Shown: piece by piece, positions 1,608 to 38,676 of the stretch
How positions within the stretch are numbered: the first letter of the stretch is position 1
Layout: each line of letters opens with the position of its first letter
Assembly: GCA_965204715.1 (NCBI GenBank)
Contig: OZ242009.1
Coordinates: 1,720,013-1,760,012 of the forward strand
Direction of reading: 5' to 3'
Source: Dehalococcoidia bacterium
Lineage (GTDB): Bacteria; Chloroflexota; Dehalococcoidia; Lucifugimonadales; UBA3495
Length of the DNA: 40,000 bases
The notes under the pieces: generated by a model
Databases searched by the model: none
Told to the model about the DNA's origin: nothing
The model's input: only the letters and a program-made list of their open reading frames with translations
Position numbers and translations under genes: made by a program

Positions 1608-1711
1608 GAGAGTTGACGCGGAAGCCTGCGAGGCTCCAGGACGGGACTCCGAATCCTAACCGGACATAGCCCAGGCGGCAAAACCCCGCTATAACCGCCC
1701 AAAATTCCAAA

Positions 1712-1721: not shown

Positions 1722-1751
1722 GATGGCATCACACATCAGCCAGGAGGACAC

Positions 1752-6516: not shown

Positions 6517-6563
6517 CATAATGATACAGGGTTTGAAAATACGCGGTCCGAAAGCCGCTTTGG

Positions 6564-15500: not shown

Positions 15501-17195
15501 GAACTCCGGCGGTTCGTTCACGTCCGTGACCGTGACCCTGACGAACTCCGTTTTCGAGTCGTCCGCGGTATCGGCGCTGATGGTCAACAGGTAGGCGTTT
15601 TCCCCGGCGGTGTCCGCCGGGTTCTCGTAGTCCGGCGGACTTTTGAAGGTCAATACCCCGCTGGAACTGAGGCTGAATTCACCGGCGTCTCTGCCTGACA
15701 GGTGCCAGGTGTGCGACGCGGTCGTGCCCTTCAGGGTGTAGGCAGCCACGGCATCTGTGCTGTTCTCCGGGTATCTGACTGAGGTTGGACCTTCAATCTC
15801 CAGTGGTTCAACCGTTGAGTCCTCAACGATAACGGTAACAGTGAAGAAGGTTTGGCCGGACCTTCCCCTATTGGGGGGATTGGTGTCATAGGCATGTAGA
15901 TGGAAAGAGTACCTATTGTCCTCGTCCTCGTCGGCCGGGTTCTCGTAGTCCGGGGGTTGCGTGAATGTAAGGTTGCCATCGTCGTCGATGTCGAAGAAGT
16001 CCCCGTCGCCGCCGCCGGGCTCAACGCCGATTATCCACCCGATATCCTGATTAACAGCACGTCCGTTGATGCTGGCGGAGTAGGTGGCCAGAGCCCAGGT
16101 GCCGTTTTCGGTGTACCTGATGAAATCGGGACCCTTCACAACGGGAGTATCGTCCGAGCCGGAGGGCGTTAAAGTAACAGTAATGCTGTCGGAGCCATCC
16201 GAAGGGTCCTTGGCAGTTATAGTGATGGAGTAGCTGCCCTTGTCATTAAAGGCATGGGCCTTGGTGGTGAACAGCGTGCCGCTCACCGGGTCGATACGGA
16301 ACAGCTCTTTATCCGTACCACCCAGGGAATAGCGTATCTCGTCACCGTCAGGGTCGGTAGCTCTTACCGGATAATATACGTCCTCGCCGGCCGGGGTGTT
16401 CCTGGGGATGTGCCGGCAGACCTTATCCGTCGGCACCGGATTGCCCGGGCAGTTGTATCCGGTCCCGGAAGACACATTGCGGAACGCTGGCGCCTGGTTA
16501 TTTCCCGGCGCCGCCCGCGCTTGGCTGGCAGATACCGCATTCGCGCTCTTGCCGGACCCCTTCCCGTCGTCGTAGGACGCCGTGACCTTCAGGTAATTGC
16601 CCACATCGCCTGCAGCGGGGGTGTATGTGGCCGTGTTCGCTCCATTCCCGCTGAGGCTGGCGTAGTTGCCGTGTTGTGAACTGGAAGAGGCCCATTGCCA
16701 GGTCGTGCCGGAAATGCTGCCGTCTGGGTCGGTCAGAGTGGCGGTTATAGCTGTACCTGCCTGGGGCCGGGTCCACGACATGGACACGCTCCCCGCCTCC
16801 TCCACGTTGTTGACGTTGATGGTAACGGTGATGGTGTCCGTTGCGCCTTCCGGGTCGGTGACAATTACTTTGACCGTGTAGGAGCTCTTGGCCTCGTAGT
16901 CCAAGGGTTGGCCCACCCGCAACTGGCCGGTGGCCCTGACGACGGTGAACGGTGAGGTTTGCGCATTCTCTATGGTGTAGACCAGCCTGTCGCCGTTGGC
17001 GTCGGTGGCCGTCACGGGAGCGCCGATGTTGTCAAACGAGGACGTGTTCTCGTCCACGCTACGGGTGGTGCTCTCCCCGTCGGTGAACACCGGCGCGTTG
17101 TTCGCCTGGGCGGAAACGGGGAGGATCGCGTAAAGGGCAATAGAGACGATGACGGATAGAACGGCAACCGCCGCGAAGAACATTCCACGACTCAT
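6564..17195 (-). CDS. Giant membrane-anchored cadherin-repeat surface protein / adhesin (~3,543 aa from ATG 17195; ORF opens at GTG 17216)
   Basis: - **Start:** the ATG at 17195 is preceded by GAGGTGG.
- **N-terminus:** signal/anchor 'MSRGMFFAAVAVLSVIVSIALYAILPVSAQA'.
- **Repeats:** by hand parse, about 29 tandem ~100-aa beta-sandwich modules follow.
- **Cadherin-like type:** ~18 modules ('ENT..G..IG.PV.ATD.D.GD.LTY.L.G.DA.SF.I...SGQ..T...LDYE....Y.V.V...D......D.I.V.I.V.DVNEPP').
- **Second cadherin-like type:** 5 modules ('F.W.LSG.DAGDFSI...G.LTF...P.YE...D.D.NN.Y.V.V.A.DG').
- **Third type:** 6 modules ('..TATL.DPDGS....WQW...........Y.P...D.G..LR....YTD.HGS.K.A').
- **C-terminal part:** an FN3 module (~7815-8095, 'GYNVQYRAGTGGSW...ATYQVQVRAYNSEGSGPWS'), two further Ig-like/unknown modules, a Pro-rich stalk, a TM helix 'GILLYILAPIILIIALLLIMFGV' (6600-6668) and a short basic tail. 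Confidence 0.9.
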   Translation of the reverse strand: MSRGMFFAAVAVLSVIVSIALYAILPVSAQANNAPVFTDGESTTRSVDENTSSFDNIGAPVTATDANGDRLVYTIENAQTSPFTVVRATGQLRVGQPLDYEAKSSYTVKVIVTDPEGATDTITVTINVNNVEEAGSVSMSWTRPQAGTAITATLTDPDGSISGTTWQWASSSSQHGNYASLSGNGANTATYTPAAGDVGNYLKVTASYDDGKGSGKSANAVSASQARAAPGNNQAPAFRNVSSGTGYNCPGNPVPTDKVCRHIPRNTPAGEDVYYPVRATDPDGDEIRYSLGGTDKELFRIDPVSGTLFTTKAHAFNDKGSYSITITAKDPSDGSDSITVTLTPSGSDDTPVVKGPDFIRYTENGTWALATYSASINGRAVNQDIGWIIGVEPGGGDGDFFDIDDDGNLTFTQPPDYENPADEDEDNRYSFHLHAYDTNPPNRGRSGQTFFTVTVIVEDSTVEPLEIEGPTSVRYPENSTDAVAAYTLKGTTASHTWHLSGRDAGEFSLSSSGVLTFKSPPDYENPADTAGENAYLLTISADTADDSKTEFVRVTVTDVNEPPEFDEGGTATRKVEHDAELNDPVGGPVTATDPDQDASLTYSLPDAATLPFAISEYTGQLSVSGALDTNRSSYTVTVLVADGKDDNGDYDIDDVDDRITVTINIEGPINSEPEFPSTETGARSFPENTTGVHNVGIPVSATDADTGDTLTYSLGGTDAGSFTIVGASGQIQTKTGQTYDYEVKSSYSVTVSVRDSKDADGNVDAVVDATQNVTISLTNLDEAGTVTLSPSQPKARAQITATLADPDGSISGTTWQWQRSNDGNTWHDVGTDSGSYTPVDGDIGYSLRATATYTDGHGSNKTAQATTTQAVGAGSNRAPEFGGATTTREFAEDAPVGHSVGAPVTATDDDNHTLTYTLEGTDAGSFEIVSTSGQIQTKTGATYDYETDPSYSVTVKADDKNGGTDTIDVTITVTDANDAPTFAAGTLTFSVPENSPADTDIGSPVTATDTDTGARLTYTLEGTDKDSFKIVTGTGQIQTKAGVTYNYEAKSSYSVTVKADDSNGGTATKPVTINLTNVNEPPAFGSNTATRSIAENTAANTNIGPPVAATDPDAGATLTYTLGGTDASDFGIDTSTGQLKTKSALDKETKSSYEVTVSVKDGKADDGTADANEDADATITVTITVTDANDPPTFSTESETRSFPENTEAGQDIGDVVTADDPDDDTLTYSLEGTDKDSFDIDSSSGQIKTKAGQTYDYEAKSSYSVTVKADDSNGGTATKPVTITLTNVDEPGTVTLSTNQPPARAQITATLTDPDGSATGKAWQWAKSNDGATWTNIGTDSDSYSPSDAEMGYSLRATVTYTDPQGPGKTAQATTTQAVRSGTNRAPDFGATNADRQVAENTGGGVNIGSPVTASDADSDTLTYTLEGTDKDSFQIVSTSGQIQTKSGVTYDYEGTKTSYSVTVKADDKKGGTGTIDVTITVTDANDKPAFDAETATREVSENTATNTDFGALVEATDQDNGDTLTYSLDTAGALVFDIDTSTGQLKTKAALDKETKDSYEVTVSVKDGRADDGTADANEDADATITVTITVTDANDAPTFAAGTLTFSVPENSPADTDIGSPVTATDTDTGARLTYTLEGTDKDSFKIVTGTGQIQTKADVTYNYEAKSSYSVTVKVDDSNGGTATKPVTINLTNVNEPPAFDEGEDATRSIAENTAAGQNIGAPVAATDPDTGDTLVYALGGADANSFDIDTSTGQLKTKAALDKETKDTYTVTVSVRDSKDSSGNADTATDDTITVTITVADVNEPPEFDDGDPTTRRVSEAAAAGQDIGAPVAATDPDAGATLTYTLGGTDAASFDIVATSGQLQTKAVLDKETEDTYTVTVAVRDSKDSSGVADTATDDTITVTITVTDANDAPVVSGDTTVNHPENDSGTVTTYTATDQDGTTSFTWTLSGDDAGDFSITGGALTFDPAPNYEDAADKDTNNVYLVTVEASDGTAKGTRDVTVTVTDVDEDGEITFSSIQPQVGTGLVATLTDDDIVVSIQSWQWEISSDKNSWNSISEATTGTYVPLDDDVGKYLRVTATYTDGHGSGKTATATTTNMVEEEPTSNEGPEFSTDTAQRSIAENTGTGQNIGQPVTATDSDTDTLTYTLGGTDAASFAIVTASGQLQTKADLDYEVKNSYTVTVKAADPSLDSDTITVTITVTDVNEPPEFDDGDQTARRVSEAAAAGQNIGALVAATDPERDTLTYSLGGTDAASFAIDATSGQLQTRAALDKETEDTYTVTVSVRDSKDSSGVADTATDDTITVTITVTDANDAPVVSGDTSVNHPENDGRTVETYTATDQDGTTSFTWTLSGDDAGDFSITGGTLTFDPAPNYEAATDKDTNNVYLVTVEASDGTAKGTLNVTVTVTDVNEPPEFDDGDQAARRVSEAAAAGQNIGAPVAATDPERDTLTYSLGGTDAASFAIVATSGQLQTRAALDEETKDTYTVTVSVMDSKDSSGNADTATDDTITVTITVAGANGPPVISGGPRSASDTPITYPENSRETVAKHSYHDPENDSVTWLLSGTDSGDFSISSAGDLTFRSAPDYESPADSNKNNEYRVTVNANDGNGGSDSTHVAVKVTNVEETGTVTLSPTQALVGTQLTATLADPDGSLTSFTWSWEISSGKSSWNSISGATSASYTPVAGDLGKHLRAKVSYTDGHGSGKTAYSAPTGAVRMSNRPPAFPGSGGGEPKTRTVAENTPAGRNIGTPVAATDPDTSAGDSLTYTLGGTDAGFFAIVATSGQLQTRAALDYETRNSYGVTVTVTDLSNASDSTTVTIQVADVDEAGTVTLSSAWPRAGAALTASLSDPDAPVTAMSWQWAWSNSRNSSYNNISGATSAAYTPVAGDVGKHLRTTVAYTDRHGSGKRAQTVSDNPVIQARVNAAPNFGPGPAARSIPENTPAGRSIGVPVTASDPDTGDSLTYTLGGTDAASFAIVATSGQLRTRAALDYETRNSYTVTVTATDQFDARDTIIVNITVTNVEPPGKPGTPAVAAASVGGHNNLSVTWAAPAGAGTAIGGYNVQYRAGTGGSWTSIPGSVSGTAATVSGLVPGATYQVQVRAYNSEGSGPWSDPGQGSTAARQQRNILRSAAGGGVMSPACTPSIGFRTGIPWSFTAARGGEDPPGLLLEVWNRDLCGMNFRVSSGAKWLSISPASGRSEGAHDQTLIRVSADISGLDTGTHTAAIRITAPGSSNSPQTVSVSLTITEPALPESSHCQEHTVIESSDGALRVVIPPNSAPCDTGITVESLDADSQQTPVGEGVRVVGKVVRAGQVSAASADTRINAALWALLPGDRVSACEEAAVVAAVYRVDGDSWDSLTHRCEMDEQGRAWTVSPLPGFGVYVVTLPAPSVESGAVGEVQLQTPEAAEADTSPATPSPETMASNGPASSINAAESQPTPAPKPEVVQVEVQPTPAPGPDVVHADDSPAGLWADLPPEELALPVMETGQSPPRRLGSLGILLYILAPIILIIALLLIMFGVRNLRGAESASP
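9940..10600. repeat. Intragenic direct repeat B, copy 1 (~660 bp, high but imperfect identity to copy 2)
   Basis: This copy aligns with 11152-11812 at an offset of 1,212 bp (404 codons). One example is CGGGTGGTTG at 10191 versus 11403. Long identical runs extend through 'GGTGATGGAGAAGTCCCCTGCATCGTCGCCGGACAGCGTCCAGGTGAAGGACGTGGTCCCGTCCTGGTCGGTGGCGGTGTAGGT'. A third related stretch, 9640-9957, matches 10261-10578 at an offset of 621 bp. Confidence 0.8.
11152..11812. repeat. Intragenic direct repeat B, copy 2
   Basis: See copy 1 (9940-10600). Confidence 0.8.
12083..12432. repeat. Intragenic direct repeat A, copy 1 (350 bp, 2 mismatches versus copy 2)
   Basis: A line-by-line comparison with 13943-14292 (offset 1,860 bp, in frame) shows mismatches only at 12160 and 12211. 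The repeat encodes the near-identical module 'APTFAAGTLTFSVPENSPADTDIGSPVTATDTDTGARLTYTLEGTDKDSFKIVTGTGQIQTK...'. Confidence 0.9.
13943..14292. repeat. Intragenic direct repeat A, copy 2
   Basis: See copy 1 (12083-12432). The sequences diverge abruptly after 12432/14292. Confidence 0.9.
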
Positions 17196-17432
17196 GGGAC
17201 ACCACCTCACTGCCACCCCACGTCAAGGTCCCAGATGAATCAGTTAACCGACAGGCACTTCATCGCGGCGACGACGCCGGGGCCGGTCCCGGCCATGCCA
17301 GGTCAGACCTCCCCCTGCACACCTGAACTGATAGCCCGGATTCACGTCAAGGCGCCCTGGCAGGCTGCCTTGGGGCCAAGCCCGCGCCACCTCCAGCCAG
17401 AGTAATCCAGAAGTTACAAGGGTAATTTTGAC

Positions 17433-17460
17433 GTTATAGCATAAGATGATACAGATTCAA
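17433..17460 (-). promoter_or_regulatory. Candidate sigma70-type promoter upstream of the giant surface-protein gene
   Basis: On the minus strand the sequence reads TTGAAT (17460-17455), a 16-nt spacer, then TATAAC (17438-17433). It sits in the only AT-rich patch of the 5' region, about 240 nt upstream of the start codon and at the truncated end of the IS701-like remnant. Confidence 0.3.
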
Positions 17461-18283
17461 CTATTACGTAAAGGTAATTGGAGCAATTTAACAATGCCCC
17501 TCTTGGGTTTGCGGGGACGCCCGAGTCCCTGATACTCCCCACTGGTCCAAGCTGGCTCCAGCGGCCAGACCGTGAAGCCCGCCGGAACGTCCGGGACGTA
17601 ACGTTTCCCCAAGGCCGAAAGCCCCTCCCGGAAGGACGGAAATACCCCGAAGGCGGCATCCCCGGCAACCCATCCGGCCTTCAGATGGCCGCGCTCCAAG
17701 GCCTGCTTCAGCATCGCCAAGGTCAATTCTGTCTTGGACCGGTAGTCACGAGTCTCATCAGGCACTCCTGCCGCCGCACACCGCTCCGGGTCCGAGGTCC
17801 AACTCTCCGGTAGATAGAGCCACCTGTCCACCAGCGCCCGGCCCAAGGGACTGACGTAGGCCAGAAACATCCCGGCCTGGCAGTTGGCCACCTTGCCCAG
17901 CCCGCCGCAGTACTGGCAGGCCACCCCCGCCGATTTCCTCCCCTGCTTGGGGAAGTCGCTGCCGTCCAAAACCCACACCGCCTCGGGTTCACTAGCCTGG
18001 GAGCCAGGTATTCCTGCAACCTACCGATGACCGTGTCATCGGACCAACGGGCCTCGGTGAGAAATCGCTGCATTGACCGGGCCCGGATGCCCACCGATTC
18101 CGGGAGATTCTCGGCGTTGCGCCGTTCCTGGGTCTGCACCAAGAGAGCCTGGAGATAGTTCCGGCTGTGCTCCCGCCATTGCTTGCGGCCGAAAGAGGCA
18201 GCAAAGAAGGCGTGAAATTTCTGAAAGCTGTCGTAGACCCGCTCGAAGCTCGCCGCATCCATCACCCATACCGCCACCATCAT
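17457..18283 (-). pseudogene. IS701-family DDE transposase remnant (frameshifted, 3'-truncated)
   Basis: The N-terminal part runs from the ATG at 18283 ('MMVAVWVMDAASFERVYDSFQKFHAFFAASFGRKQWREHSRNYLQALLVQTQERRNAENLPESVG...RFLTEARWSDDTV'). It continues after a frame change near 17980-18000 with 'WVLDGSDFPKQGRKSAGVACQYCGGLGKVANCQAGMFLAYVSPLGRALVDRWLYLPESW', the hallmark IS701 DDE region. The total is only about 275 codons, so the C-terminal third is missing. Confidence 0.7.
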
Positions 18284-18322
18284 CTGACCAGCTATTCCAT
18301 CTACAACCCGTCGTTGTAGTCC

Positions 18323-19496
18323 TAAACCAAAGCCAAGGTGAAATGCGCAGAGTAGTGGGGCAAATTGAGGCCGTAACTGGTTAGCTGACCTCAGGAGTTG
18401 GGAGGTGTTGCTGATGGGTGCGAGAGAGAAGGACCTCAGGCGGCGGATGATTCTGGCGCCTGCGCCCCGGGAGCGGGAGCGTTGGTACGCCATGTTGCTC
18501 TTGGCCCAGGGTTGGACGGCGGCGGCCACGGCGGAAGCGCTGGAGCGGGACCCCCACACCATCGGACGCTGGGCGCCGGCCTTCGGCGAGGGAGGGCCTG
18601 CGGCCCTGCTGTTCGATCAGACCGGCGGTTCCCCCAGCCCTTGACCAAGCGCAGCAGACGGAGTTGAAAGGGGCAGTGCAACTGCCGCCGTCATGGTCAG
18701 GCATGGAAATGGCCAACTGGTACTGGAAAGTGGCGCGGCAGTTTGTTGCGGAACGCTTTGGTATCAGCCTGTGTCGCAGCAGTTGTCTGAACTATCTGCA
18801 CCGCTTGGGATTCGCTTTCAAGCGTCCCAGGAAGCGGTTGGTCAAAGCGAATGAGTCTAAGCGGCAAGCCTTTGTGGCGGAGTATGCCGCCTTTGGGGAC
18901 CAGTCGGGGCGCGCTGGCGGAAAGGCATTCTTTGCCGGTGGGGCCCACTTCCGGGCCGGCGCCGGGTTGCGGGGCAAGTGGGTGTTGAGGGAAGAGCCGG
19001 CATTGGCGGACTCCACCAGCTCCAAGCACAGGGAGAAGGCCGGCTGCTACCCGGTGGTGTGCCTGGAAACCGGCGGGGCGGAGTGGATGGAAGTGGAGGG
19101 CAACAGCACTCCGGGACCCCGGTTGCCTTCCTGGAACGGTTGCGGGGGAGGCACGGCGGGCGTCTGAACGTGATCTGGGACAATGCGCCGGCCCATCGCG
19201 GCGAGGCGCTGCGGGCGTACCTGTGGACGCCTGACCTGAACCTGGGGCTGGTAAACCTGCCGGGCTACAGTCCGGACTTCAACGCAGAGGAGGCCACCGG
19301 CAATCTGTGCCTGGGGACCAGGGAGGCGGTACGGGCACGGGCCGGCGGCTTCCTGGGCGGGTCCGGCTAACCGGAAGGACGGGGTGAGACGGCGCTGCCG
19401 GACAGTGCTGCAATCGAGGGCTGAGGCGCTCCTGCAAGATTCCCAGCCCAATTCCAGCCTTCCGGCAAATGCACATCCCACCTTGGCTTTGGTTTA
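18323..19496 (+). mobile_element. IS630-family insertion sequence (1,170 bp, 18325-19494) with intact terminal inverted repeats and TA target duplication
   Basis: The left end is AACCAAAGCCAAGGTGAAATGCGCA. The reverse complement of the right end is AACCAAAGCCAAGGTGGGATGTGCATTT. This gives a 16-bp perfect TIR. TA sits on both flanks (18323-24 and 19495-96), as expected for IS630/Tc1-mariner elements. The insertion lies 40 bp upstream of the IS701-like transposase start. Confidence 0.8.
18405..19370 (+). pseudogene. IS630-family transposase, inactivated (two frame changes, catalytic-site substitution, internal deletion)
   Basis: - **HTH part, frame 3:** 'RERWYAMLLLAQGWTAAATAEALERDPHTIGRW', ending at a stop at 18644.
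- **Middle part, frame 1:** 'ANWYWKVARQFVAERFGISLCRSSCLNYLHRLGFAFKRPRKRLVKA'.
- **C-terminal part, frame 3:** 'LNVIWDNAPAHRGEALRAYL...LVNLPGYSPDFNAEEA'.
- **Catalytic site:** the place where family members carry the first catalytic Asp ('F.DE..F') reads 'FFAGGAHF'. Confidence 0.75.
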
Positions 19497-19568: not shown

Positions 19569-21116
19569 TCAATTTCCCGCCTTGATGAAGTCGGCGACGC
19601 GCTCGGCAATCATCATCGTGGTGACGTTGGTGTTGGCGCGGACCACGTCGGGCATTATGGAGGCGTCGGCGACCCGGAGGTTGGAGACGCCCCGGACTCG
19701 CAACTGCTGGTCGACCACGGCCATGGGGTCGCTGCCGGGCCCCATCTTGCAGGTGCCGGAGATGTGATAGGAGGTGCTGATGTTGCGGCGCAACCAGGCG
19801 TCCAGCGCTTCGTCGGCATCAAGGTCTGCTGGCGTGGGAGCGATTATCTCCTCGATGATGCCATCGTATGAGCTGTGCTGCAGCAGGGACACGCAGAGGC
19901 GGACGCTCTCCCGCAGCCGTTCCCGGTCCCAGTCCTCTTCCAGGTAGCGGTAGTCCATGCTGGGCGGAACGTGGGGGTCGGCGGACACCAGCCGCAGTTC
20001 GCCCTTGCCCGCTGCCAGATAAAGGCCGCAGTTGACAGTGTGGGCCGGGTTGTCGTCTCGCACCACCGTATTCAGCGACGCCGGCGACAGTATCATATCG
20101 TTGGGCGTGTCTGAACCGGTGGCAGTGTAACGGAGCCGCAGGGCCCTCATGCCATTGGCGTCCTGGGGGACATCGTCCTTGACCGTGAAACGCACTGACA
20201 CGTTGGGATGGTCACGCATGTTCTGGCCAACGCCCGGCAGGTCCACCGCCACGGGAATCCCCTGGGCGTTCAACTGGCCGGGCGGGCCGATGCCCGAGAG
20301 CAGCAGCAGTTGCGGGGAAGCCACCGCACCGGCGCAGAGGATGATCTCGCCCCCTTCAACCACGAAGGTCTCGTCGCCGCTCTCTACTTCTATTCCGACG
20401 GCCCGCTTGCCTCCCGGTTCGTCTTCCAGCACCAGGCGGTTGGCCTGGACGTTGGGGCGGATGGTGAGGTTCAACCTGTGGCGCACCGGGGAAATGTAGG
20501 TCAGGGCCATGCTCATCCGCACGCCGTCGATGTTGTTCTCGGCCCGCAGGCTGACGCCGGTGGACTCGGGATGGTTCACGTCGGGATGGAAGGGGTACCC
20601 GGCGGCGGCGGCGGCCTGAAAGAATGCCTCCTGCGAGGCCGGCCAGGTCTCCCGTTGATGATGGCGTACCGGGACCGGGCCGTCAGTGCCGTGGAAATCG
20701 TCGTGAAAGTCGGCGTCGTTCTCCAGCTTGCGGAAATAGGGCAGGCAGTCCAGGTAGGCCCAGCCGTCGTTGCCCCAGGACGCCCAGGTGTCGTAGTCCT
20801 CGGGTGCGCCGCGGATGAATGTCTGGCCGTTGATGGCGCTGGAGCCGCCCAGTACCTTGCCGCGCGGCACGGGCATCGGCCCCTGGTCCGGCGTGGCCGT
20901 GCCGGTGAAGGACCAGTTGTAGGGTGAACCGGCGGCGCGGGCCTCCAGGTTCACCGTCCCCCAGCCCAGCTTGAGCATATCGGGCAATTGAGTGAAGTCT
21001 GGGAAGTCGGGACCGGCCTCCAGCAGGAGCACCGAGCGCTCGGGGTCCTCGGACAGACGGGCAGCCACGATGCAACCGGCCGTGCCACCGCCAACAACTA
21101 TGTGGTCGTATTTCAT
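19569..21116 (-). CDS. GMC-family FAD oxidoreductase (choline/alcohol dehydrogenase-like)
   Basis: The ATG at 21116 is preceded by GGAGGGA. The N-terminal FAD fold is 'MKYDHIVVGGGTAGCIVAARLSEDPERSVLLLEAGPD'. Internal GMC strings include 'RGKVLGGSSAINGQTFIRG'. The C-terminal GMC signature is 'ISTSYHISGTCKMG...VVDQQLRVRGVSNLRVADASIMP'. Confidence 0.9.
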   Translation of the reverse strand: MKYDHIVVGGGTAGCIVAARLSEDPERSVLLLEAGPDFPDFTQLPDMLKLGWGTVNLEARAAGSPYNWSFTGTATPDQGPMPVPRGKVLGGSSAINGQTFIRGAPEDYDTWASWGNDGWAYLDCLPYFRKLENDADFHDDFHGTDGPVPVRHHQRETWPASQEAFFQAAAAAGYPFHPDVNHPESTGVSLRAENNIDGVRMSMALTYISPVRHRLNLTIRPNVQANRLVLEDEPGGKRAVGIEVESGDETFVVEGGEIILCAGAVASPQLLLLSGIGPPGQLNAQGIPVAVDLPGVGQNMRDHPNVSVRFTVKDDVPQDANGMRALRLRYTATGSDTPNDMILSPASLNTVVRDDNPAHTVNCGLYLAAGKGELRLVSADPHVPPSMDYRYLEEDWDRERLRESVRLCVSLLQHSSYDGIIEEIIAPTPADLDADEALDAWLRRNISTSYHISGTCKMGPGSDPMAVVDQQLRVRGVSNLRVADASIMPDVVRANTNVTTMMIAERVADFIKAGN

Positions 21117-21311
21117 TGAAATGACTCCCTCCGTAGATTTGGGCCATTGTACATTGTTTTTTCCTACGCCCGGTCTTTCCCGGCTACGGGGGAAGCCCCA
21201 TACGAATGCGACTGTCACAAATCAAGACTGGTCTGGCATCCGGTATTGTGTTACCCAATTATTTCAATGGTTTCACCCGCAGACATCCGATTTTCGGTGA
21301 TCCCCCAACCT

Positions 21312-24300
21312 TCACCGGTCTCGTTCAAACCTGCCGTATGCCGGTTTTTCCAGAATCCGGGCAATTACCGAGTCTCTCTCATCCCTGTCCACAGTTCGCT
21401 TCTGGTCCGAAGGCTCGTACAGGTAAAGCGGATCGGGAATCCATCTGGGACTGGCTGCCATTTCGACGATCGGGACCATGAAGGCCCAATCGTTGGCGAG
21501 GTCGATCCACTGGCCGTCAATCTTCAGGTCTTCCACGTCGATTGCGTCGAACAGGTACTTCCTGAAGGTCCTCAGGTGTTGCCACACATTGCTCCGCCAG
21601 GACCGCGGCCTATTGAAGTCGGCGGGGTAGGACGCTTCTTTGTCCAGTCTGAGCATGGACCCTACCGTGGCATCGGCTCCGGCTTCGTATTCGGCTCGGA
21701 CCCGGTCGAGGACATGCCTGCCCAGCAGGGCGTCATCGGCGTCAAGGGTGACTATCACCGTGTCCGGGTCGTCGCAGAACCTGGTGACGGCGTTCCAGGT
21801 GTTGAAGAGGGCGCCCCGGCGGGTGGAGTTCCGAATAATGGTGACCCTGTCTGCGTGGTCCCTGAACAGCACTTCGGCATAGTCCCCGAACCCGTTGGTC
21901 GAAGCGTCGTCCACCACGACCGCGCCCCAGTCCCGGCAGTCCTGAACAGCGAGCGACTCGAAGCAGCGCCGGAACCTGCCCGGGTCAACGTTGCGCCCGC
22001 AAATCACGAAGACGAAGGTTTCGCTCCGCTTGGGACCGGCCCAGTCCACCGCGGAGCCGGCCAGTTCCACCCTGTCGAGCTGGACCGGCGCAACGTAACC
22101 CCGTTCTACGCTGTCCATGATGTCCGCTATGCCATCGTCATCGGATTTCCGGTCGTTGGGAACATGGATGAAGGCGGTTGCCGGGTCCCCGCCGCGGTAC
22201 GAGCGGTGTTCGCCGGACGCGATGAAGCGGTCGAACGCCCGGTGCCAGGGCATCGCAAACCGGCCGCCCTCAAGCTCGTTGGCGACGGGCAGCGCCGACT
22301 GGAGCTTCCGCCTGTCGAAGAGGCATCCCCTGACCTCGACGCGCCAGTCCCCTCGCGGCCCCTCGCAGGTGTAGGGTTGGGGGCCGGAGCGGCAGATGCT
22401 GAGGGAAACGAAGAGGGCCCTGGGGTCATTGCGGAGGACATCCGCCATCTCGTCAAGGTAGTTGTGCTGCCGGTCCGCCCTGGCGATGATGAGATCGCTG
22501 TCCACTTGGAGGACGTAGTCGCCGGTGCACGCATCGAACCCGTACAGGGTGGCGAATAGCTGCTGTCCGTTGGCCGAGTGAGTTTCTTCCGACTCCACCC
22601 CGAACCACCTTGCAAAGGTGCTGCGAATGGTCTCGGGGTCCTCAGGGGCGTAGACCACCCGGTCCACCAAGCCGTCCCCGACCAGACGTTCCATGGCGGC
22701 GTGGTGCGCCGCGGGATCGGGAGAGTCGTACTGGCGGGCGAAGGGTCCCATGAACGGGTCGACCACGATCACCCGCTCCGCGAACCTGACCGGTCCCTCG
22801 AGTTGCCCGACCTGGTGGCGGACCAGCCTCTCGATGGAGCGCCACTCCATCAGGCAAGTCTTTATAAGCAAGGACACCTTCGGCCTCGGGTCGCCCGGGG
22901 GCAAGGCAGTTGAGGGTTTGAGCTTGAACACGAGGTGCTCGGACGCCGGGCGCAAGTGACGCGAATCGGTCCCGTCCAGTTCCACGACTTTGTCGACGTG
23001 GAGCCCCGCACTCTCGAAGGCTCGCAGGTAGGTCGCGAAGCTCCTGTGGACCTCCACCCGCCGGTTGCCGTTCATGCTGAGTGTCTTGGTGTACTGGAAC
23101 GTGTGCTCGTACTCATGATCACGGGGCAGATGCTTTTCCGCCAACTCGGTCGATACGACCGGCAGGTAGAACGGGTTGCACACCGCCACGAACACCGTCC
23201 CGTCCCCGGCGGCCAGCCGGCGCAAATCCTGGAGGATGGCTTCGAACTCCTCTGAACCGGGAATGGTGCACAGGACCCGGCTGCACACCACGGCCTGGAA
23301 ACCAGTCGACCTCGACCTGAGTTCGTCGAGCAACTCCCGGCCGCCGTACCTGGCTGCGCTGACGTGGCCGAGGCACCTCGCGACCATGGCGGGGTCCGGG
23401 TCGTATCCTGTTGCCTGGATCCCGCATTCGGACAACCGCTCCGCCAGCCGGCCGTCTCCGCAGCCGTAGTCGAGGACGGTTTCGGGACGTTCCGCGAGGA
23501 CCAGGTCCGCCATCGGGCGTTGGAACAGTTCGTCCCAGCCCCTCGGGTCGAGCGCGTTCAGGAACTGCCCGAATCCGGCCAGTTCCGGCAGGTCCGGGTC
23601 GGTCAGGGATCTCGTCATCAACCGCTTGAGGTCGGACCGGAAGTGAAAACGGTAGGTCAGAAACGCCCGCCGGCACATCTGCTCGAACTCCCGGTCGTTT
23701 GCCGGGACTATGTCCGACCCGTAGTCGATGAGCTTCAGCCCGGATGAGGTCACCAGAAGGTTGTCGGGATGGATATTCCGGCACGCGATTCCCGCCTCCC
23801 GGCACTCCCGGAGCAGGGTCAGTATCTCCCCGAGGCGCCCACCCGAGTACTTCGTACCGGCCTCATACGGGTGCACGGTCACCACCTGCCGGCCCCGGCT
23901 CCGGACTTCCCGGATGTCCAGCAGTGTGCTGTATCCTCCCAGTTTCCCGGCAAGGGACCGGAGGAACGCCACCTGGCGCTCCATGCTGCGGGGCTTCCAG
24001 GAATGGAAGTACTTGTACGCCAACTGCCCGTCGGTCAGCACGGCGCCCTCCTCACCCACTCCCAGGCAGGTGAGAGGGCCGGTCCCGAACTCCTCCCGGA
24101 CGAAGGTCTCGGCGGTCCTGGCGAGGGCTTCTGCGGGCAGCCTGACGTTGGCCCGGTACTGCTCCACGGTCTGGCGTAACTTCCTGAAGTAGTCCCTGAT
24201 TGGAGCGGCATCCTCTTCCGACAGCCGGTTGACGAACTCCTCAATCCGCCCCTCGCTGTAGACCGATGCCAGGGTCTCCGTGAAATGCTTGAGTGCTGCG

Positions 24301-26531
24301 ACCGGTGCTTCGTACCGCAGAGACGCCAGCCACCAGGGAATCGGCTCCCCGAATGAGTCCCGCTCGTAGAACCGTCTGAGGGCGCGGATGAGTCCGGTGA
24401 CCCTGATGGCGTTGAGCTCAAAGTCCCGCAATCGCTCGCGGAGGTGGTCCTGATACAACGCGGCCGCCTCGCCGATTTCATAGTCGTCAAAGTCGAGCAG
24501 GCTACGGCCGTGGGGTTCCCTGCCCTGTGCCTGTCGCCGCTGCGCCTTTCTCAGGAGCATGTCATGCAGGGCGGAGTAGAGGGCGTGTCCCCGGATGTCC
24601 TGCGCCAGTGTGCCGAAGCCGGGGTCTGAGCCTGGACTCGCCGACCTGTCCTGCCGGACCGGGAGCGGGGCCTGGACCACCCTGCGCCCCCCGATGTGCC
24701 TGTTCAGGAGGCACCAGACCATGTCGCTGCGCCGGGTGTCGGCTCCCTCGATTTCAGCGGCGGCGTTGGGGAACTCCCGCAGGGCGTCCACGTCGAACAC
24801 CAGTGTGTTCGGTCCCCTTCTCACCGACGGCACGAGTCCGGCGGCAACATCGGCTCCCCCTGGCTGCACGAGAGGCCGGAATACCTGCCTGCCCGCCAGG
24901 ATTTCAGGCAGGCGTGACACCATCTCCTTTAACACGTCCGCTGCTCGCAGCCCTGTCCGGCCTGCCTCGTACCAGAAGGGCGACTCCAGGTGGCCGGTCT
25001 CCGACCGGGAGAGGTCGTAGTAATAGTCGCGCATGTCCAACCGTGCGAGCCTGTTTTCGCCGCTTCGGTCAGGATAGGGTGTGTCCGGTCCGAGTCCGGT
25101 CAACTGCTGTAGGTTGTGGTGGAGGTCGACAAGCTGGGTGCGTATGCAGCCCGGGGCTGGCAGGGGAGGGTCGCCCGTGACCTCCCCTATGACAACCTCG
25201 TTGCCGGTATCCTTCAGCTTCATGATTGCGGGCACGTAGTCGACTTCACTGGGCTGGATATGGCCGTCCCCCCCGTAGACCAGGCTGTCCAGACGTACAT
25301 CGTCATCGAGAATCCACACCACCGCCCCGGGCCGCGGCTTGGCCTCGAGATAGAGGTAGTGCTGGAGCATGGTCCGGCTTGCGGCGATGCTCTTGCGCCC
25401 GGATAGCTGGTCCGGGGTGGCGGACAGCATTCCTGCCTCGACATCTGAAGCCTGGTCTTCCAGCGTCTTCGCGGTCACGTCGAGCCCTCGTCCCAGGGCA
25501 TCGCCGACAGCCTCCCTGAGGGCCTTCCTGGAGGGACCGCCCGGCCCTCCGTTTTCGAGCAGGACCACCTTCAGGGTGACGTCGTCTCGCCAAGCGATCC
25601 TGGTGACCAAGTCATCCATGAGCCGGGAGATTCCGGCGACTTCAGGCGATGTGATTGCTCCGACGACCAGATCCAAGCTCTCGCCGGGCACAGGATTGTC
25701 CCTGGCCGGCCCGGAAACCGGAGGGATGTCCATGGCTGCGTCGGCGTCACAGCCGAACATCTCCCGGCTCCTCCTGAGGAACGCGGCGCGTTGTTCCCCG
25801 GACATGCGCCCGTTGTACTTGCGAAAGAAGCGCGTGAGCCCCAGGCATTTCGCTTCGCTGCCGGGCGTGGATAGCCGCAGGCGGTCCTCCTCGGCGTAGT
25901 GGTGTACCAGGTGTTCCGGGAGGGAGCCGAACCTCACCGAGCGGAGGTCGGCGAGCCGGATGCAGACGTCCCGGTCCGTGGTGCTGGCAAGCCCCTCGTC
26001 GAACCCTCCGGCTTCGAGCAGTATTTGGAGCCTCACGAACAGGTTGGAGCCCTGTATGTGGGGGTTTCTTATAAGAAGTTCGTCCACGTCGAGGCGGTCC
26101 GGTATATCGAGGTATCCTCCACTGTCGTCGAAGCTGCTGTGGTAAACGATCCCGGCGGCGACCATGTCCAGCCCTTGCCGCACCACCGCTTCTTCACACC
26201 GCTCCAGATAGACCGGTTCCCACATGTCGTCGTCATCCAGAGAAGCCACGAAGACCTCCGGCTCGACGGACTGCAGCCAGGAGAGTGCGGAGTTGCATGC
26301 GCCGGAGAGTCCCGGTGTCCGGCGGTTTTCCAGGTAGACCGTGGTCACCCCGCCGGCGCCGAAGCCGGCAATAACCTCCTTGTTGGCGAACCGCATCTGC
26401 GAACCGGAATCGTCCACGACCAACAGGTAGTCGGGAGGCCGCGTCTGGACTTCGACAGAAGCCAGCGCCCGGTTGGCCAGAAGCCCGGGCCTGCTGTGTG
26501 TGGCGATCACCGCGGCTATCTTAATCATCAC
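21312..26531 (-). CDS. 1,739-aa multidomain glycan-assembly protein: GT2 - GT-A-like - kinase-like - SAM methyltransferase - GT-A-like - GT2
   Basis: - **N-terminal GT2:** 'IAAVIATHSRPGLLANRALASVEVQTRPPDYLLVVDDSG...SLDDDDMWEP'.
- **Second GT-A-like module:** 'VVWILDDDVRLD'.
- **Kinase-like fold (~23640-24080):** 'GVGEEGAVLTDGQLAYKYF...CRNIHPDNLLVTSSGLKLIDYGSD'.
- **Class-I methyltransferase (~23160-23490):** 'VLDYGCGDGRLAERL...FQAVVCSRVL'.
- **Third GT-like module:** 'YVLQVDSDLII'.
- **C-terminal GT2:** 'FVFVICGRNV...LAVQDCRDWGAVVVDDASTNG...IVTLDADDALLG'. Confidence 0.85.
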   Translation of the reverse strand: MMIKIAAVIATHSRPGLLANRALASVEVQTRPPDYLLVVDDSGSQMRFANKEVIAGFGAGGVTTVYLENRRTPGLSGACNSALSWLQSVEPEVFVASLDDDDMWEPVYLERCEEAVVRQGLDMVAAGIVYHSSFDDSGGYLDIPDRLDVDELLIRNPHIQGSNLFVRLQILLEAGGFDEGLASTTDRDVCIRLADLRSVRFGSLPEHLVHHYAEEDRLRLSTPGSEAKCLGLTRFFRKYNGRMSGEQRAAFLRRSREMFGCDADAAMDIPPVSGPARDNPVPGESLDLVVGAITSPEVAGISRLMDDLVTRIAWRDDVTLKVVLLENGGPGGPSRKALREAVGDALGRGLDVTAKTLEDQASDVEAGMLSATPDQLSGRKSIAASRTMLQHYLYLEAKPRPGAVVWILDDDVRLDSLVYGGDGHIQPSEVDYVPAIMKLKDTGNEVVIGEVTGDPPLPAPGCIRTQLVDLHHNLQQLTGLGPDTPYPDRSGENRLARLDMRDYYYDLSRSETGHLESPFWYEAGRTGLRAADVLKEMVSRLPEILAGRQVFRPLVQPGGADVAAGLVPSVRRGPNTLVFDVDALREFPNAAAEIEGADTRRSDMVWCLLNRHIGGRRVVQAPLPVRQDRSASPGSDPGFGTLAQDIRGHALYSALHDMLLRKAQRRQAQGREPHGRSLLDFDDYEIGEAAALYQDHLRERLRDFELNAIRVTGLIRALRRFYERDSFGEPIPWWLASLRYEAPVAALKHFTETLASVYSEGRIEEFVNRLSEEDAAPIRDYFRKLRQTVEQYRANVRLPAEALARTAETFVREEFGTGPLTCLGVGEEGAVLTDGQLAYKYFHSWKPRSMERQVAFLRSLAGKLGGYSTLLDIREVRSRGRQVVTVHPYEAGTKYSGGRLGEILTLLRECREAGIACRNIHPDNLLVTSSGLKLIDYGSDIVPANDREFEQMCRRAFLTYRFHFRSDLKRLMTRSLTDPDLPELAGFGQFLNALDPRGWDELFQRPMADLVLAERPETVLDYGCGDGRLAERLSECGIQATGYDPDPAMVARCLGHVSAARYGGRELLDELRSRSTGFQAVVCSRVLCTIPGSEEFEAILQDLRRLAAGDGTVFVAVCNPFYLPVVSTELAEKHLPRDHEYEHTFQYTKTLSMNGNRRVEVHRSFATYLRAFESAGLHVDKVVELDGTDSRHLRPASEHLVFKLKPSTALPPGDPRPKVSLLIKTCLMEWRSIERLVRHQVGQLEGPVRFAERVIVVDPFMGPFARQYDSPDPAAHHAAMERLVGDGLVDRVVYAPEDPETIRSTFARWFGVESEETHSANGQQLFATLYGFDACTGDYVLQVDSDLIIARADRQHNYLDEMADVLRNDPRALFVSLSICRSGPQPYTCEGPRGDWRVEVRGCLFDRRKLQSALPVANELEGGRFAMPWHRAFDRFIASGEHRSYRGGDPATAFIHVPNDRKSDDDGIADIMDSVERGYVAPVQLDRVELAGSAVDWAGPKRSETFVFVICGRNVDPGRFRRCFESLAVQDCRDWGAVVVDDASTNGFGDYAEVLFRDHADRVTIIRNSTRRGALFNTWNAVTRFCDDPDTVIVTLDADDALLGRHVLDRVRAEYEAGADATVGSMLRLDKEASYPADFNRPRSWRSNVWQHLRTFRKYLFDAIDVEDLKIDGQWIDLANDWAFMVPIVEMAASPRWIPDPLYLYEPSDQKRTVDRDERDSVIARILEKPAYGRFERDR

Positions 26532-38241: not shown

Positions 38242-38555
38242 ACCTACATCGCGATAAAGATCATCCAGCAACTCCTTGCGGTTGGCGGCACTCTCCGCCG
38301 TTGGGTGGCTGACCGTAGCGGGGAAGGGCAACAGTGCCAAAAGCCTGCCCTCCTTCAGAGGACCGCGACAGTCTCGGGGGAACTCGCATATCCTCAGTGC
38401 TACGTGCTGGAAACTGGAAATAGGACCATGGGTTAGCCGCCACGGAGCAATAGGCGTAGGCATTCTTTCTCCATCGGCGTCTGGATCCCACCGATTACGG
38501 CAACGCCCGCATCGCGCATTGAACAAGCGAGATCATAGGTCTTGAGGATGAGGTC
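38227..38555 (-). pseudogene. Decayed DprA/Smf-like (SLOG-superfamily) gene fragment
   Basis: Three minus-strand frames each carry a piece of one protein: 'DLACSMRDAGVAVIGGIQTPMEKECLRLLLRGG*', then 'PMVLFPVSST*', then 'FPRDCRGPLKEGRLLALLPFPATVSHPTAESAANRKELLDDLY'. From memory these resemble the C-terminal half of DprA-like proteins ('G.HSP.E.ECL..LLRG..P.i.cPa...' ... 'GRLL.LSPF......T...A..RN'). The fragment has no N-terminal half and overlaps the GHKL gene's last 15 nt. Confidence 0.4.
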
Positions 38556-38676
38556 TCAAAGGCAGTGGGACGAACAAAAGAAGCCGGTAAGAGGCCCTTC
38601 CAATAGTTGAGGGTCGCCCTTCGTTTTGAATGGCGGGGGTTGTTCCATATCCGACTATCCACCGCCGGTTCAATTG

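Follow-up and report, generated by a model that had tools for sequence, protein, structure and literature searches.

In Escherichia coli O9a, WbdD carries a methyltransferase followed by a kinase and has no glycosyltransferase (GT) modules; it possesses a long trimeric coiled coil acting as a ruler and a membrane-binding C-terminus, works with Wzm/Wzt-CBM, and has an active kinase, shown in vitro by phosphorylation of a mannose disaccharide mimic (PMC3482155). Polymerase and terminator are fused in Klebsiella pneumoniae O12 WbbB and O7 ORF6 (PMC11231755), and likewise in Geobacillus WsaE (PMC2943079). O7 ORF6 is arranged as methyltransferase-kinase-CBM-coiled coil-GT2-GT2, its AmiN/APH-like kinase has an essential catalytic Asp (D441A is dead), and its gene belongs to an O-antigen cluster that also encodes an ABC transporter (PMC11231755). 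WsaE from Geobacillus stearothermophilus joins a methyltransferase to two rhamnosyltransferase domains, three domains in all and no kinase-like module; the GT domains build the repeat, the enzyme's own methyltransferase acts directly on the terminal sugar by O-methylation, a kinase step not being involved, and the gene belongs to an S-layer glycan cluster and overlaps wzm/wzt (PMC2943079). With WbbB, O7 ORF6 and WsaE as precedents, the idea of a fused polymerase-terminator, advanced in the original prediction for the gene analyzed here, is therefore not new.

The gene lies on the reverse strand of the window, i.e., the whole 40,000-nucleotide stretch of Dehalococcoidia DNA that was analyzed. 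Its reading frame starts with GTG and translates into 1,739 aa with zero internal stops, while the database copy (P0001) starts at an ATG one codon downstream and counts 1,738 aa; the true start is likely this ATG, at 26526-26528. The single chain with four GT modules, a kinase-like module and a methyltransferase module that had been read from the sequence was borne out by the translation, by Pfam, by AlphaFold2 and Foldseek, and by profile comparisons, confirming the observation of an intact multi-domain enzyme. The modules follow the order GT2N-M2-LNK-KIN-MT-M5-GT2C and form two GT pairs (GT2N with M2, M5 with GT2C) around a helical bundle, a protein-kinase-like (PK-like) domain and a SAM methyltransferase:

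21312..26531, minus strand: whole gene, 1,739 codons plus stop (stop at 21312-21314)
25722..26531, minus strand: GT2N, N-terminal GT2 (GT-A), aa 1-270 (NCBIfam, Pfam PF00535, hhalign)
24612..25685, minus strand: M2, divergent GT-A module, aa 283-640 (AlphaFold2 and Foldseek, conservation)
24087..24611, minus strand: LNK, all-helical bundle, aa 641-815 (DSSP of the AlphaFold2 model)
23547..24086, minus strand: KIN, small protein-kinase-like domain, aa 816-995 (profile-versus-PDB matches, motif census)
22932..23546, minus strand: MT, class I SAM-dependent methyltransferase, aa 996-1200 (Pfam, profile-versus-PDB matches, conservation)
22047..22898, minus strand: M5, second divergent GT-A module, aa 1212-1495 (AlphaFold2 and Foldseek)
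21315..22034, minus strand: GT2C, C-terminal GT2, aa 1500-1739 (Pfam PF00535, conservation)

Because the whole layout is kept, full-length and at 58-86% identity, in at least 120 Dehalococcoidia/SAR202 protein clusters, and its central part in 672 representatives at 50% identity, the architecture is real and not a product of chance. No transmembrane segment was found in the 1,739-aa protein (highest Kyte-Doolittle 19-residue mean 1.44), nor was an amphipathic or transmembrane anchor, and a soluble, cytoplasmic enzyme is the best reading.

GT2 modules had been claimed at both ends, and both claims hold: Pfam PF00535 matches two stretches of the protein (E 8e-24), the best being aa 1513-1632 within GT2C, and NCBIfam GT models of the MftF/EpsD/GlfT1 type match aa 5-218 in GT2N. 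The motifs predicted for these modules are present and their positions could be refined, the DxD motif of GT2N being DDDD (aa 99-102) at 26226-26237 according to the translation check, and that of GT2C being LDADD (aa 1596-1600) at 21732-21746. S-T-T-D-R-D (aa 183-188) is invariant in the conservation alignment of GT2N, while GT2C also carries VVDDAS (aa 1539-1544) and an invariant D1681-W-A. When modules were compared with each other by hhalign, GT2N and GT2C were the sole pair scored as related (85% probability) and no kinship of M2 and M5 was detected at the sequence-profile level, so that structure prediction was required for these two modules.

M2 (aa 283-640) has no significant Pfam match, and its invariant residues comprise ENG (aa 326-328), W-I-L-DDD (aa 406-411, at 25299-25316, with DDD at aa 409-411), D-Y-Y-Y-D-L-S (aa 502-508) and RRS (aa 600-602). 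The AlphaFold2 model of M2 together with LNK (aa 275-815) reached a pLDDT of 88.6 and a pTM of 0.89, and all 50 PDB matches listed by Foldseek for M2 are GT-A glycosyltransferases (best E 1.4e-5), including GlfT2, Chlorella hyaluronan synthase, PcManGT, AvpGT, COLGALT1, TarP, mannosylglycerate synthase and BcsA (E 1e-5 to 4e-4). In M5 the invariants are K-T-C-x-M-E (aa 1224-1229), Q-x-D-S-D (aa 1342-1346; here QVDSD at 22494-22508, with DSD at aa 1344-1346), W-H-R (aa 1429-1431) and H1456; a sub-threshold PF00535 match lies near the DxD in 8 of 13 members, and the M5 profile gave zero matches among PDB sequences even at E 10. Its model (aa 1195-1500; pLDDT 81.5, pTM 0.85) again returned only GT-A enzymes among the 50 matches listed (best E 1.4e-6), namely Leptospira GT 6p61, BcsA, PcManGT, heparosan synthase 2, XXYLT1, glycogenin and K4CP among others (E 1e-6 to 3e-4). 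Foldseek probabilities for the two modules ranged from 0.92 to 1.00 with modest TM-scores (0.3-0.6), hence their folds are divergent. Comparison of the predicted structures thus confirms M2 and M5 as GT-A glycosyltransferases, and the two further GT-A-like modules proposed from their 'DDD' and 'DSD' motifs were upheld by modeling and Foldseek, not by sequence alone. The acidic residues of all four DxD motifs (DDDD, DDD, DSD and D1597-A-DD1599-1600) are invariant in 17 sequences, a set extending down to a 39%-identical Phycisphaeraceae homologue, and those of M2 and M5 are retained in 113-118 of 120 relatives.

LNK accompanies M2 throughout the family (co-occurrence in 149 representatives). Its helices span approximately aa 640-668, 683-721, 738-757, 760-771, 776-795 and 800-814 by DSSP, and in the joint model they pack against M2 as a compact bundle whose longest helix measures 39 aa. 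A coiled-coil or ruler element had been suggested as a target for structure prediction; no long coiled-coil ruler was found in the model of aa 275-815, LNK being the sole long helical region, and the predicted structure is that of a compact bundle instead.

The kinase-like nature of KIN emerges at the profile level only, as Pfam yielded weak, sub-threshold Pkinase/APH matches in this region, and family profiles compared with the PDB retrieved CK2alpha, TTK and CaMKII (E 3e-5 to 4e-4), in whose alignments the G-loop, the beta3 Lys, the catalytic loop and DxG all line up. Designed PPR proteins, the top matches of a second profile search, were discarded as spurious, since their scores were sums of many tiny repeat matches, none of which passed by itself. 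In the present protein, the G-loop GVGEEG lies at 24045-24062, the beta3 Lys840 at 24012-24014, the catalytic loop C-R-N919-I-H-P-D-N924 at 23760-23783 and D936-Y-G at 23718-23726. G-x-G-x-E-G, K840, N924 and D936-x-G938, which align to CK2alpha and TTK, are kept in at least 112 of 121 aligned relatives, while alignment A6 shows no invariant acidic residue 15-25 residues after K840, where the alphaC Glu would be expected; a displaced Glu is possible. The original prediction had recognized this module by 'HPDNLLV' and 'IDYG', both of which are present, HPDNLLV at 23751-23771 (the interval first assigned to it, 23757-23777, is 6 nt off and reads NIHPDNL). However, 'CRN-IHPDN' aligns on 'HRD-LKPxN', and the catalytic-base position is therefore occupied by Asn919 and not by the D of HPDN, D923, which varies among diverse relatives (K in 49, D in 31). 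Asn919 is found in 96/96 close and 113/114 diverse relatives in the motif census. Of the motif residues of the two central modules, motif I and the acidic D1044 of MT and the ATP-Mg residues of KIN are kept, but the catalytic Asp of KIN is replaced by Asn.

The pseudokinases HER3 and JAK2 JH2 carry the same HRD-to-HxN change, with Asn for the catalytic Asp and with Lys, the Mg-binding Asn and the DFG Asp retained; these eukaryotic signaling proteins bind ATP with little or no phosphotransfer, and as they retain weak activity, Asn alone is no proof of inactivity. Judging from its motifs, KIN is most likely either a nucleotide-binding pseudokinase with a scaffolding or regulatory role, or an atypical transferase with an acceptor that needs no general base, and it is probably not a sugar kinase of the WbdD type.

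The identification of MT as a class I SAM methyltransferase was correct, and motif I (VLDYGCGDG) lies exactly at the predicted 23451-23477. Pfam Methyltransf_23/25/12/11 score above their cut-offs (E 2.7e-12 to 2e-8) over aa 1013-1136, and 12 diverse sequences all have L-D-x-G-x-G and, where beta2 ends, the acidic D1044. UbiG-like proteins lead the profile comparison with the PDB (UbiG best, 1.7e-11) and CgnL (7pd7) is among the sequence matches, whereas WbdD is missing from the 60 PDB matches listed, out of 108. By these profiles MT is generic and not specifically WbdD-like.

The family is distributed over Chloroflexota (SAR202, an abundant deep-ocean group), Planctomycetota, Myxococcota and Gammaproteobacteria, with the more distant relatives in Phycisphaerales, Myxococcota and Pseudoalteromonas. 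Two carriers are in culture, Sorangium cellulosum (KYG04946.1) and Pseudoalteromonas donghaensis HJ51, in which the gene is plasmid-borne (WP_162898086.1); no homologue was found in the phage genome collection. Besides the arrangement described above, which is the commonest, there are a shorter form (GT2N-M2-LNK-KIN-MT) and a permuted form (GT2N-KIN-M2-LNK), an indication that the individual modules are functional units. Database annotation of the members is limited to 'glycosyltransferase' or 'hypothetical', and a literature search found no description of a GT2-GTA-helical-KIN-MT-GTA-GT2 architecture. The family is widespread and unstudied, and it probably builds a methylated glycan.

The gene neighborhoods were compared between the window and about 20 homologous loci from four phyla. 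The original prediction had noted no ABC transporter or flippase gene in the window, and none is present among its ORFs of at least 150 aa; among the neighboring transporter genes proposed as a search target in homologues, ABC transporters were likewise absent, and neither Wzm/Wzt nor an initiating transferase or polysaccharide cluster stands beside the gene in the window or in these loci. Genes for an initiating phosphoglycosyltransferase, a ligase, a lipid-carrier enzyme or an exporter were not found near it in the loci examined. Two SAR202-type loci (L002 and L019) have genes for a UDP-Glc/GDP-Man dehydrogenase and an NAD epimerase/dehydratase flanking the gene, and degraded copies occur in two more (L017 and L018), suggesting that some SAR202 relatives probably use UDP-glucuronate and a derivative of it as donors. 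Only 4 of about 11 SAR202-type loci have sugar-nucleotide genes of this kind, and tblastn found no remnant of the dehydrogenase or epimerase in the window, an observation that speaks against glycan assembly. A CE4 polysaccharide deacetylase gene follows the short form (L026/27), with a weak Pfam match on the Sorangium protein, and hence points to a glycan product.

Outside SAR202, every main-form or short-form locus examined (L010, L020/21, L022, L023, L024, L025 and L026/27) carries a ~200-aa LOG-like SLOG gene (PF18306/TIGR00725) immediately behind the gene or overlapping it; this partner is absent, like NADAR, from the window (by tblastn for SLOG) and from all SAR202-type loci. The permuted class resides in a conserved operon in two loci, the P. 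donghaensis plasmid and L029, with genes for GTP cyclohydrolase II (fused to NADAR in L029), an Asn-synthase-like protein and an arylamine N-acetyltransferase; in L029, ThiF lies upstream and a LysE exporter downstream. The constant partners in other lineages are thus nucleotide-processing genes and not polysaccharide genes, which also runs against a glycan-assembly reading. Defense genes are frequent around the gene: DpdA, QueC, TmtA and a Cap17-like effector in the window, DrmD/DrmMI in L010 and L025, GmrSD and HsdM in L002, a Type ISP R-M enzyme and Cas1 in L017, UvrD and AAA_13 in L019; L001 and L023 have ordinary metabolic neighbors. Searched against PADLOC-DB v2, the 1,739-aa protein retrieved only mad2, through its generic methyltransferase domain (4e-9), and a marginal PD-T4-6 kinase (8.8e-4), and it belongs to no known anti-phage protein model there; the SLOG partner of its relatives had no match. 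In blastn comparisons with all loci, the flanks of the window share nothing except a transposase fragment in common with L018. Flanks are non-syntenic even at 89% nucleotide identity, therefore the limits of a cassette cannot be defined by synteny, and ORF clustering across 20 loci revealed no universal neighbor in the SAR202 branch. The best explanation treats the gene as a cassette by itself, located in variable, defense-island-rich genome regions.

This set of modules is naturally read as one enzyme that both builds and modifies a glycan. In the reading that we prefer, and to which we give about an even chance, the gene encodes a soluble, cytoplasmic, self-contained enzyme for glycan assembly and methylation that bears an ATP-binding pseudokinase or atypical domain. 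The four GT modules would form up to four different linkages from NDP-sugars, giving on an acceptor either a hetero-oligosaccharide of defined structure or a repeat polymer. MT would then methylate this product, the simplest route being direct O-methylation, as performed by WsaE or WbdD-O8, and not methylation of a phosphate. KIN, which retains all that is needed to bind ATP-Mg (G-loop, Lys840, Asn924, Asp936) with Asn at the catalytic base, would act as scaffold or regulator, or as an atypical transferase. The original prediction went further and proposed a methyl-phosphate terminator of the WbdD type; its GT, PK-like and MT modules do occur in one chain, and the WbdD-like reading is in this respect partly supported, but the terminator logic does not fit Asn919, the lack of ruler and transporter, and the generic MT. 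A WbdD/WbbB-like enzyme for an ABC-transporter-dependent surface polysaccharide, whose GT modules lengthen the chain on a lipid carrier, whose kinase phosphorylates the non-reducing end and whose MT methylates that phosphate, so that growth stops and export is licensed, appears decidedly unlikely: fused polymerase-terminators are known and a transporter could be encoded beyond the 40 kb of genome surveyed, yet the HRD Asp is replaced family-wide, a long coiled coil and an amphipathic or transmembrane anchor are missing, the window and about 20 loci lack wzm/wzt, initiating phosphoglycosyltransferase and ligase genes, MT is not specifically WbdD-like, and the flanks lose synteny among close relatives.

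The adjoining SLOG gene outside SAR202, the GTP cyclohydrolase II operon of the permuted class and the many loci lying within defense islands (the window, L010, L025, L002, L017 and L019) would be explained by a nucleotide-centered or anti-phage conflict system, in which the GT2-pseudokinase-GT-A-helical core and a nucleotide N-glycosidase-type partner jointly produce a nucleotide-derived glycoconjugate or attach sugar to a non-glycan target, the form found in SAR202 being a derivative from which this partner has been lost. We regard this as rather unlikely, because SLOG and NADAR are lacking where the present gene belongs, PADLOC models matched no more than the generic MT domain and a weak kinase, L001 and L023 show ordinary metabolic neighbors, surface-glycan genes likewise gather in flexible islands, making the association unspecific, and four conserved GT-A sites suit glycan assembly better than signaling. 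The combination of GT2, Asn-type pseudokinase, divergent GT-A and helical bundle could also constitute an undescribed system, not a surface-polysaccharide synthase, which builds a nucleotide-derived or conflict-related glycoconjugate with the pseudokinase as an ATP/nucleotide sensor or an atypical (e.g., adenylyl-) transferase; this is unlikely in our estimation, and leans on the coupling to SLOG/TIGR00725 or GTP cyclohydrolase II-NADAR, on the defense islands and on the conjugative plasmid. Finally, a 3,550-aa cadherin/Big_9/fn3 protein is encoded 4 kb from the gene in the window, and FG-GAP, ASPIC or Kelch giant proteins near it in L001, L022 and L026/27, as would suit a complex that glycosylates proteins in the cytoplasm and whose substrates, before their export, are large secreted repeat proteins (adhesin-type cadherin/FG-GAP) encoded nearby. 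This is highly unlikely, since the neighbor families vary by locus and most loci are without any, such repeat proteins are common in these phyla, and a GMC oxidoreductase gene, an HTH gene and a broken transposase intervene in the window.

Self-contained glycan assembly and methylation would extend the catalog of single-chain glycan factories beyond WbbB, O7 ORF6 and WsaE with a new layout of four GT-A sites that has neither ruler nor exporter, and would supply a strictly conserved Asn-type kinase-like domain as regulator, scaffold or atypical transferase. Should the association with nucleotide partners and defense islands prove functional, the family would tie glycosylation chemistry to bacterial conflict systems. 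The cultured carriers, S. cellulosum and P. donghaensis HJ51, make direct testing possible.

Among the described systems, O7 ORF6 resembles the present protein in being one polypeptide of more than 1,400 aa with a class I MT, an annotation-cryptic kinase-like domain and GT2 modules, and the nearest structural relative of its MT is CgnL, which the present MT also matches. The present protein differs in the order of its modules (GT2-GTA-helical bundle-KIN-MT-GTA-GT2), in an ePK-like kinase fold with Asn at the base position, and in having no coiled coil, CBM or transporter. With WbdD it shares a SAM MT and a eukaryotic-like kinase fold beside multi-domain GTs, as well as the Mg-binding Asn and the DFG Asp (N356 and D369 in WbdD); the order kinase then methyltransferase is reversed, as had been predicted, the Asn at the catalytic-base position is invariant, and ruler, anchor and transporter were not found. 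The Asn-for-Asp pattern is that of HER3 and JAK2 JH2, a likeness of shared fold and motifs in an unrelated context. Tandem GT-A modules in one chain recall the dual GT-A polymerases (E. coli K4CP, Pasteurella PmHS2, WbbB), which alternate two sugars and feature among the Foldseek matches of M5, and the UDP-Glc dehydrogenase neighbors of some relatives suggest uronic-acid donors in those relatives; the dual GT-A polymerases, however, have two GT modules and not four, lack an MT/kinase-like insert and are encoded in capsule or O-antigen loci with exporters. WsaE, like the present protein a soluble multi-domain enzyme, offers the simplest analogy for how its MT may act.

The giant glycosyltransferase gene (window 21312-26531, minus strand) is a single open reading frame of 1,739 codons without internal stops, and its public copy, P0001, starts at an ATG one codon downstream (1,738 aa, 100% identical to the window protein). 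At least 120 clusters at 90% identity (1,62x-1,83x aa), with members mostly from Dehalococcoidia/SAR202 MAGs, align to it end to end at 58-86% identity, a Phycisphaeraceae MAG encodes a full-length homologue that is 39% identical, and conserved residues run along the entire chain in the family alignment, A1. Because those clusters align over the whole length, the frame is a genuine gene and not a high-GC artefact. The original prediction of one giant multi-module frame was confirmed, its reading of the catalytic loop being the sole correction; translation recovered every motif it had listed, VLDYGCGDG at the same coordinates and HPDNLLV 6 nt away:

26226-26237, minus strand, DDDD
25299-25316, minus strand, WILDDD
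23751-23771, minus strand, HPDNLLV
23718-23726, minus strand, D-Y-G
23451-23477, minus strand, VLDYGCGDG
22494-22508, minus strand, QVDSD
21732-21746, minus strand, LDADD

Pfam and NCBIfam place GT2 domains at both termini (PF00535, E 8e-24; aa 5-218 and 1513-1632) and assign aa 1013-1136 to a class I SAM methyltransferase, where such a module had been proposed. Residues 283-815 gave no significant Pfam match, nor did residues 1212-1495, reached by PF00535 at sub-threshold level only; the modules lying there, M2 (aa 283-640) and M5 (aa 1212-1495), were neither detected by hhalign against the GT2 domains of the same protein nor recognised in a profile search of PDB sequences. AlphaFold2 models of the two stretches, built from 37-sequence alignments, were nonetheless confident (aa 275-815, pLDDT 88.6, pTM 0.89; aa 1195-1500, pLDDT 81.5, pTM 0.85). 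The Foldseek matches listed against the PDB were GT-A glycosyltransferases in 50 of 50 cases for each model, including GlfT2, Chlorella hyaluronan synthase, PcManGT, AvpGT, COLGALT1, TarP, mannosylglycerate synthase and BcsA for M2, and Leptospira GT 6p61, BcsA, PcManGT, heparosan synthase 2, XXYLT1, glycogenin and K4CP for M5. Since all these listed matches are GT-A, the claim of four glycosyltransferase-like modules is correct, and an invariant DxD is kept in all four. Residues 641-815 (LNK) are modelled as a helical bundle forming one rigid body with M2, and no transmembrane-like hydrophobic segment occurs in the whole protein.

The kinase-like module (KIN, aa 816-995) was not called by Pfam, with Pkinase/APH matches below threshold. 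Two family profiles searched against PDB sequences returned 538 matches at E ≤ 10 and 737 at E ≤ 1, and those listed were nearly all protein kinases (CK2alpha, 4e-4 and 1.4e-4; TTK, 3.4e-5), designed-repeat proteins having been set aside as spurious. The alignments begin with the Gly-rich loop, extend as far as the DxG motif and place G-I-x-C-R-N-I-H-P-D-N-L-L-V on G-I-x-H-R-D-V-K-P-x-N-V-M-I of the PDB kinases; the canonical catalytic Asp position is therefore Asn919, and the D of HPDN falls on the variable x of KPxN. In a motif census of 96 close relatives and 114 diverse representatives (identity down to ~30%), position 919 was Asn in 96/96 and 113/114, respectively, with a single Asp, while position 923 was Asp in 92 of the close relatives and Lys in 49 or Asp in 31 of the diverse ones. 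G-x-G-x-E-G, Lys840, Pro922, Asn924 and Asp936-x-Gly938 are nearly invariant; a conserved alphaC Glu was not evident in the alignment. Because this census indicates ATP-Mg-binding residues without a general base, we read KIN as a nucleotide-binding pseudokinase or atypical enzyme. The proposed kinase resemblance holds at profile level; the HPDN Asp does not occupy the catalytic-base position.

Searching aa 275-1000 against 1.84 billion 50%-identity representatives retrieved 672 relatives at E ≤ 1e-3 (225 at E ≤ 1e-30), and domain HMMs derived from A1 resolved three architecture classes:

Class 1, GT2N-M2-LNK-KIN-MT-M5-GT2C, full, the commonest
Class 2, ~1,220 aa, without M5-GT2C
Class 3, ~1,100 aa, permuted GT2N-KIN-M2-LNK, without MT

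These classes share a conserved core of GT2N, KIN, M2 and LNK. Named members, annotated only as 'glycosyltransferase' or 'hypothetical', are found in Chloroflexota, in Myxococcota (cultured Sorangium cellulosum, KYG04946.1, among them), in Phycisphaerales and on a Pseudoalteromonas donghaensis plasmid. The closest relative (L003, 9988-13527) covers only residues 564-1739, its 5' third being absent, and the L007 homologue (10001-15199) has 21 in-frame stops; the two are pseudogenes or else long-read assembly errors. The Sorangium (L024) and Phycisphaerales (L025) homologues are longer (1,963-1,991 aa), with additional Pfam matches, a weak Polysacc_deac_1 (CE4) and a His_Phos_1 (histidine phosphatase) match, respectively.

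In the window, the gene is flanked by a GMC oxidoreductase (19569-21218, minus strand) and a tyrosine integrase (27036-28070, minus strand), past which GC falls from 0.65 to 0.53 and a defence island starts (27036-39519 with the integrase included):

28792-30474, DpdA with N-terminal DUF6884 (PADLOC, E 2.5e-103)
30494-32668, UvrD/GajB-like helicase
32679-33584, PD-(D/E)XK nuclease
33856-34644, QueC
34861-38241, TmtA of the Tiamat system (E 4.6e-114)
38677-39519, minus strand, Cap17-like PN-superfamily effector

To the left lie an HTH gene, a DDE transposase that is frameshifted and a cadherin-repeat protein of 3,550 aa. The last (6564-17216, minus strand; 19 cadherin repeats together with Big_9, Cadherin_4 and fn3 domains) has the look of a giant adhesin-type or surface protein, and big FG-GAP or Kelch repeat proteins also occur near homologues in L001, L022 and L026/27. 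The N- and C-terminal halves of the DDE_5 transposase are split over two overlapping ORFs (17457-18562, minus strand; 18664-19167, plus strand), pointing to an IS element that is frameshifted or has decayed; an HTH_33 ORF adjoins it, and DDE_3 regions in L018 match a 480-nt piece (18817-19294) at 72-74% identity. The region is flanked by the GMC oxidoreductase and by a CoA-transferase of family III (2456-5131, minus strand; 891 aa, two matched stretches); both families recur, along with transposases, upstream of the L018 homologue (1-5866), the only hint of a common neighbourhood; no flanks are shared with L003 (89% nucleotide identity). The window holds no detectable transporter, flippase, initiating transferase or sugar-nucleotide gene, in line with the earlier remark on ABC transporters and flippases.

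Across SAR202-type loci, the only biosynthetic genes that recur beside the giant gene encode a UDP-Glc/GDP-Man dehydrogenase together with an NAD epimerase/dehydratase; L002 and L019 have the pair intact, and in L017 and L018 it is degraded. Recurring defence or mobile neighbours there are GmrSD, HsdM, a Type ISP R-M enzyme, Cas1, UvrD and AAA_13; L005 carries DpdF-like and SNF2 helicases, and L010 and L025 DISARM-like DrmD/DrmMI. Every examined non-SAR202 locus with main or short forms has, directly downstream and often overlapping, a LOG-like SLOG 'LDcluster4' gene (~200 aa; PF18306, TIGR00725; GGxGTxxE motif; 45-58% identity between loci), sometimes followed by a CE4 deacetylase; the permuted member (~1,116 aa) sits in a conserved operon on a plasmid and a metagenomic chromosome:

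L010 15280-15879, SLOG gene
L020 (L020/21) 5530-6153, SLOG gene
L022 16041-16478, SLOG gene
L023 14507-15097, SLOG gene
L024 15973-16551, SLOG gene
L025 6581-7180, SLOG gene
L026 (L026/27) 6174-6734, SLOG gene
L028 116683-123205 of the record, permuted-class operon, P. donghaensis HJ51 plasmid NZ_CP032092.1
L029 9185-17069, permuted-class operon, metagenomic chromosome

The SLOG gene was not found in the window or in SAR202-type loci. The permuted-class operon has genes for GTP cyclohydrolase II, for an Asn-synthase-like amidotransferase and for an arylamine N-acetyltransferase; the cyclohydrolase is annotated as RibA on the plasmid and is fused to NADAR in L029. The operon adjoins TraV/TraC conjugation genes on the plasmid, and in L029 ThiF lies upstream of it and a LysE exporter gene downstream.

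The protein is soluble and belongs to a modular family, with four GT-A sites bearing intact DxD motifs, an intact SAM-binding methyltransferase and a protein-kinase-like domain whose residues indicate competence for ATP binding without the catalytic Asp. It may build a glycan from NDP-sugars, with up to four linkage types, and then methylate it; donors in some relatives would probably include UDP-GlcA-derived sugars, and the kinase-like domain could serve as regulator, scaffold or atypical transferase. We give this reading as a whole roughly even chances. A nucleotide-centred or conflict-system role, to which the SLOG and NADAR partners of relatives and the placement in defence islands point, is unlikely, since the SAR202 branch lacks those partners, no PADLOC model matches and surface-glycan genes likewise gather in flexible islands; a functional link to nucleotide-processing or defence genes would, if true, raise the interest of the family. 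Glycosylation of the neighbouring giant surface proteins is highly improbable, their loose proximity being its only support and not conserved.

The WbdD-like polymerase-terminator originally envisaged also appears quite improbable: the fusion of glycosyltransferase, kinase-like and methyltransferase modules stands, but Asn919 replaces the catalytic Asp, and neither a ruler (the longest helix of the 641-815 bundle has 39 residues), nor an anchor (maximum 19-residue Kyte-Doolittle mean 1.44), nor a transporter with matching gene-cluster context was found. Fused polymerase-terminators are themselves already known from K. pneumoniae WbbB and O7 ORF6 (PMC11231755). The WbdD kinase is an active enzyme (PMC3482155) and the catalytic Asp of O7 ORF6 is essential, D441A being dead (PMC11231755), whereas KIN carries Asn. 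For the methyltransferase of the glycan-assembling enzyme favoured here, the simplest chemistry would be direct O-methylation, by analogy with WsaE of Geobacillus stearothermophilus (PMC2943079), as opposed to methylation of a kinase-installed phosphate. The giant enzyme would represent a new architecture within the known multi-module glycan-assembly enzymes with built-in modifying domains, in a large, uncharacterised family marked by a strictly conserved, unusual Asn-type kinase-like domain.
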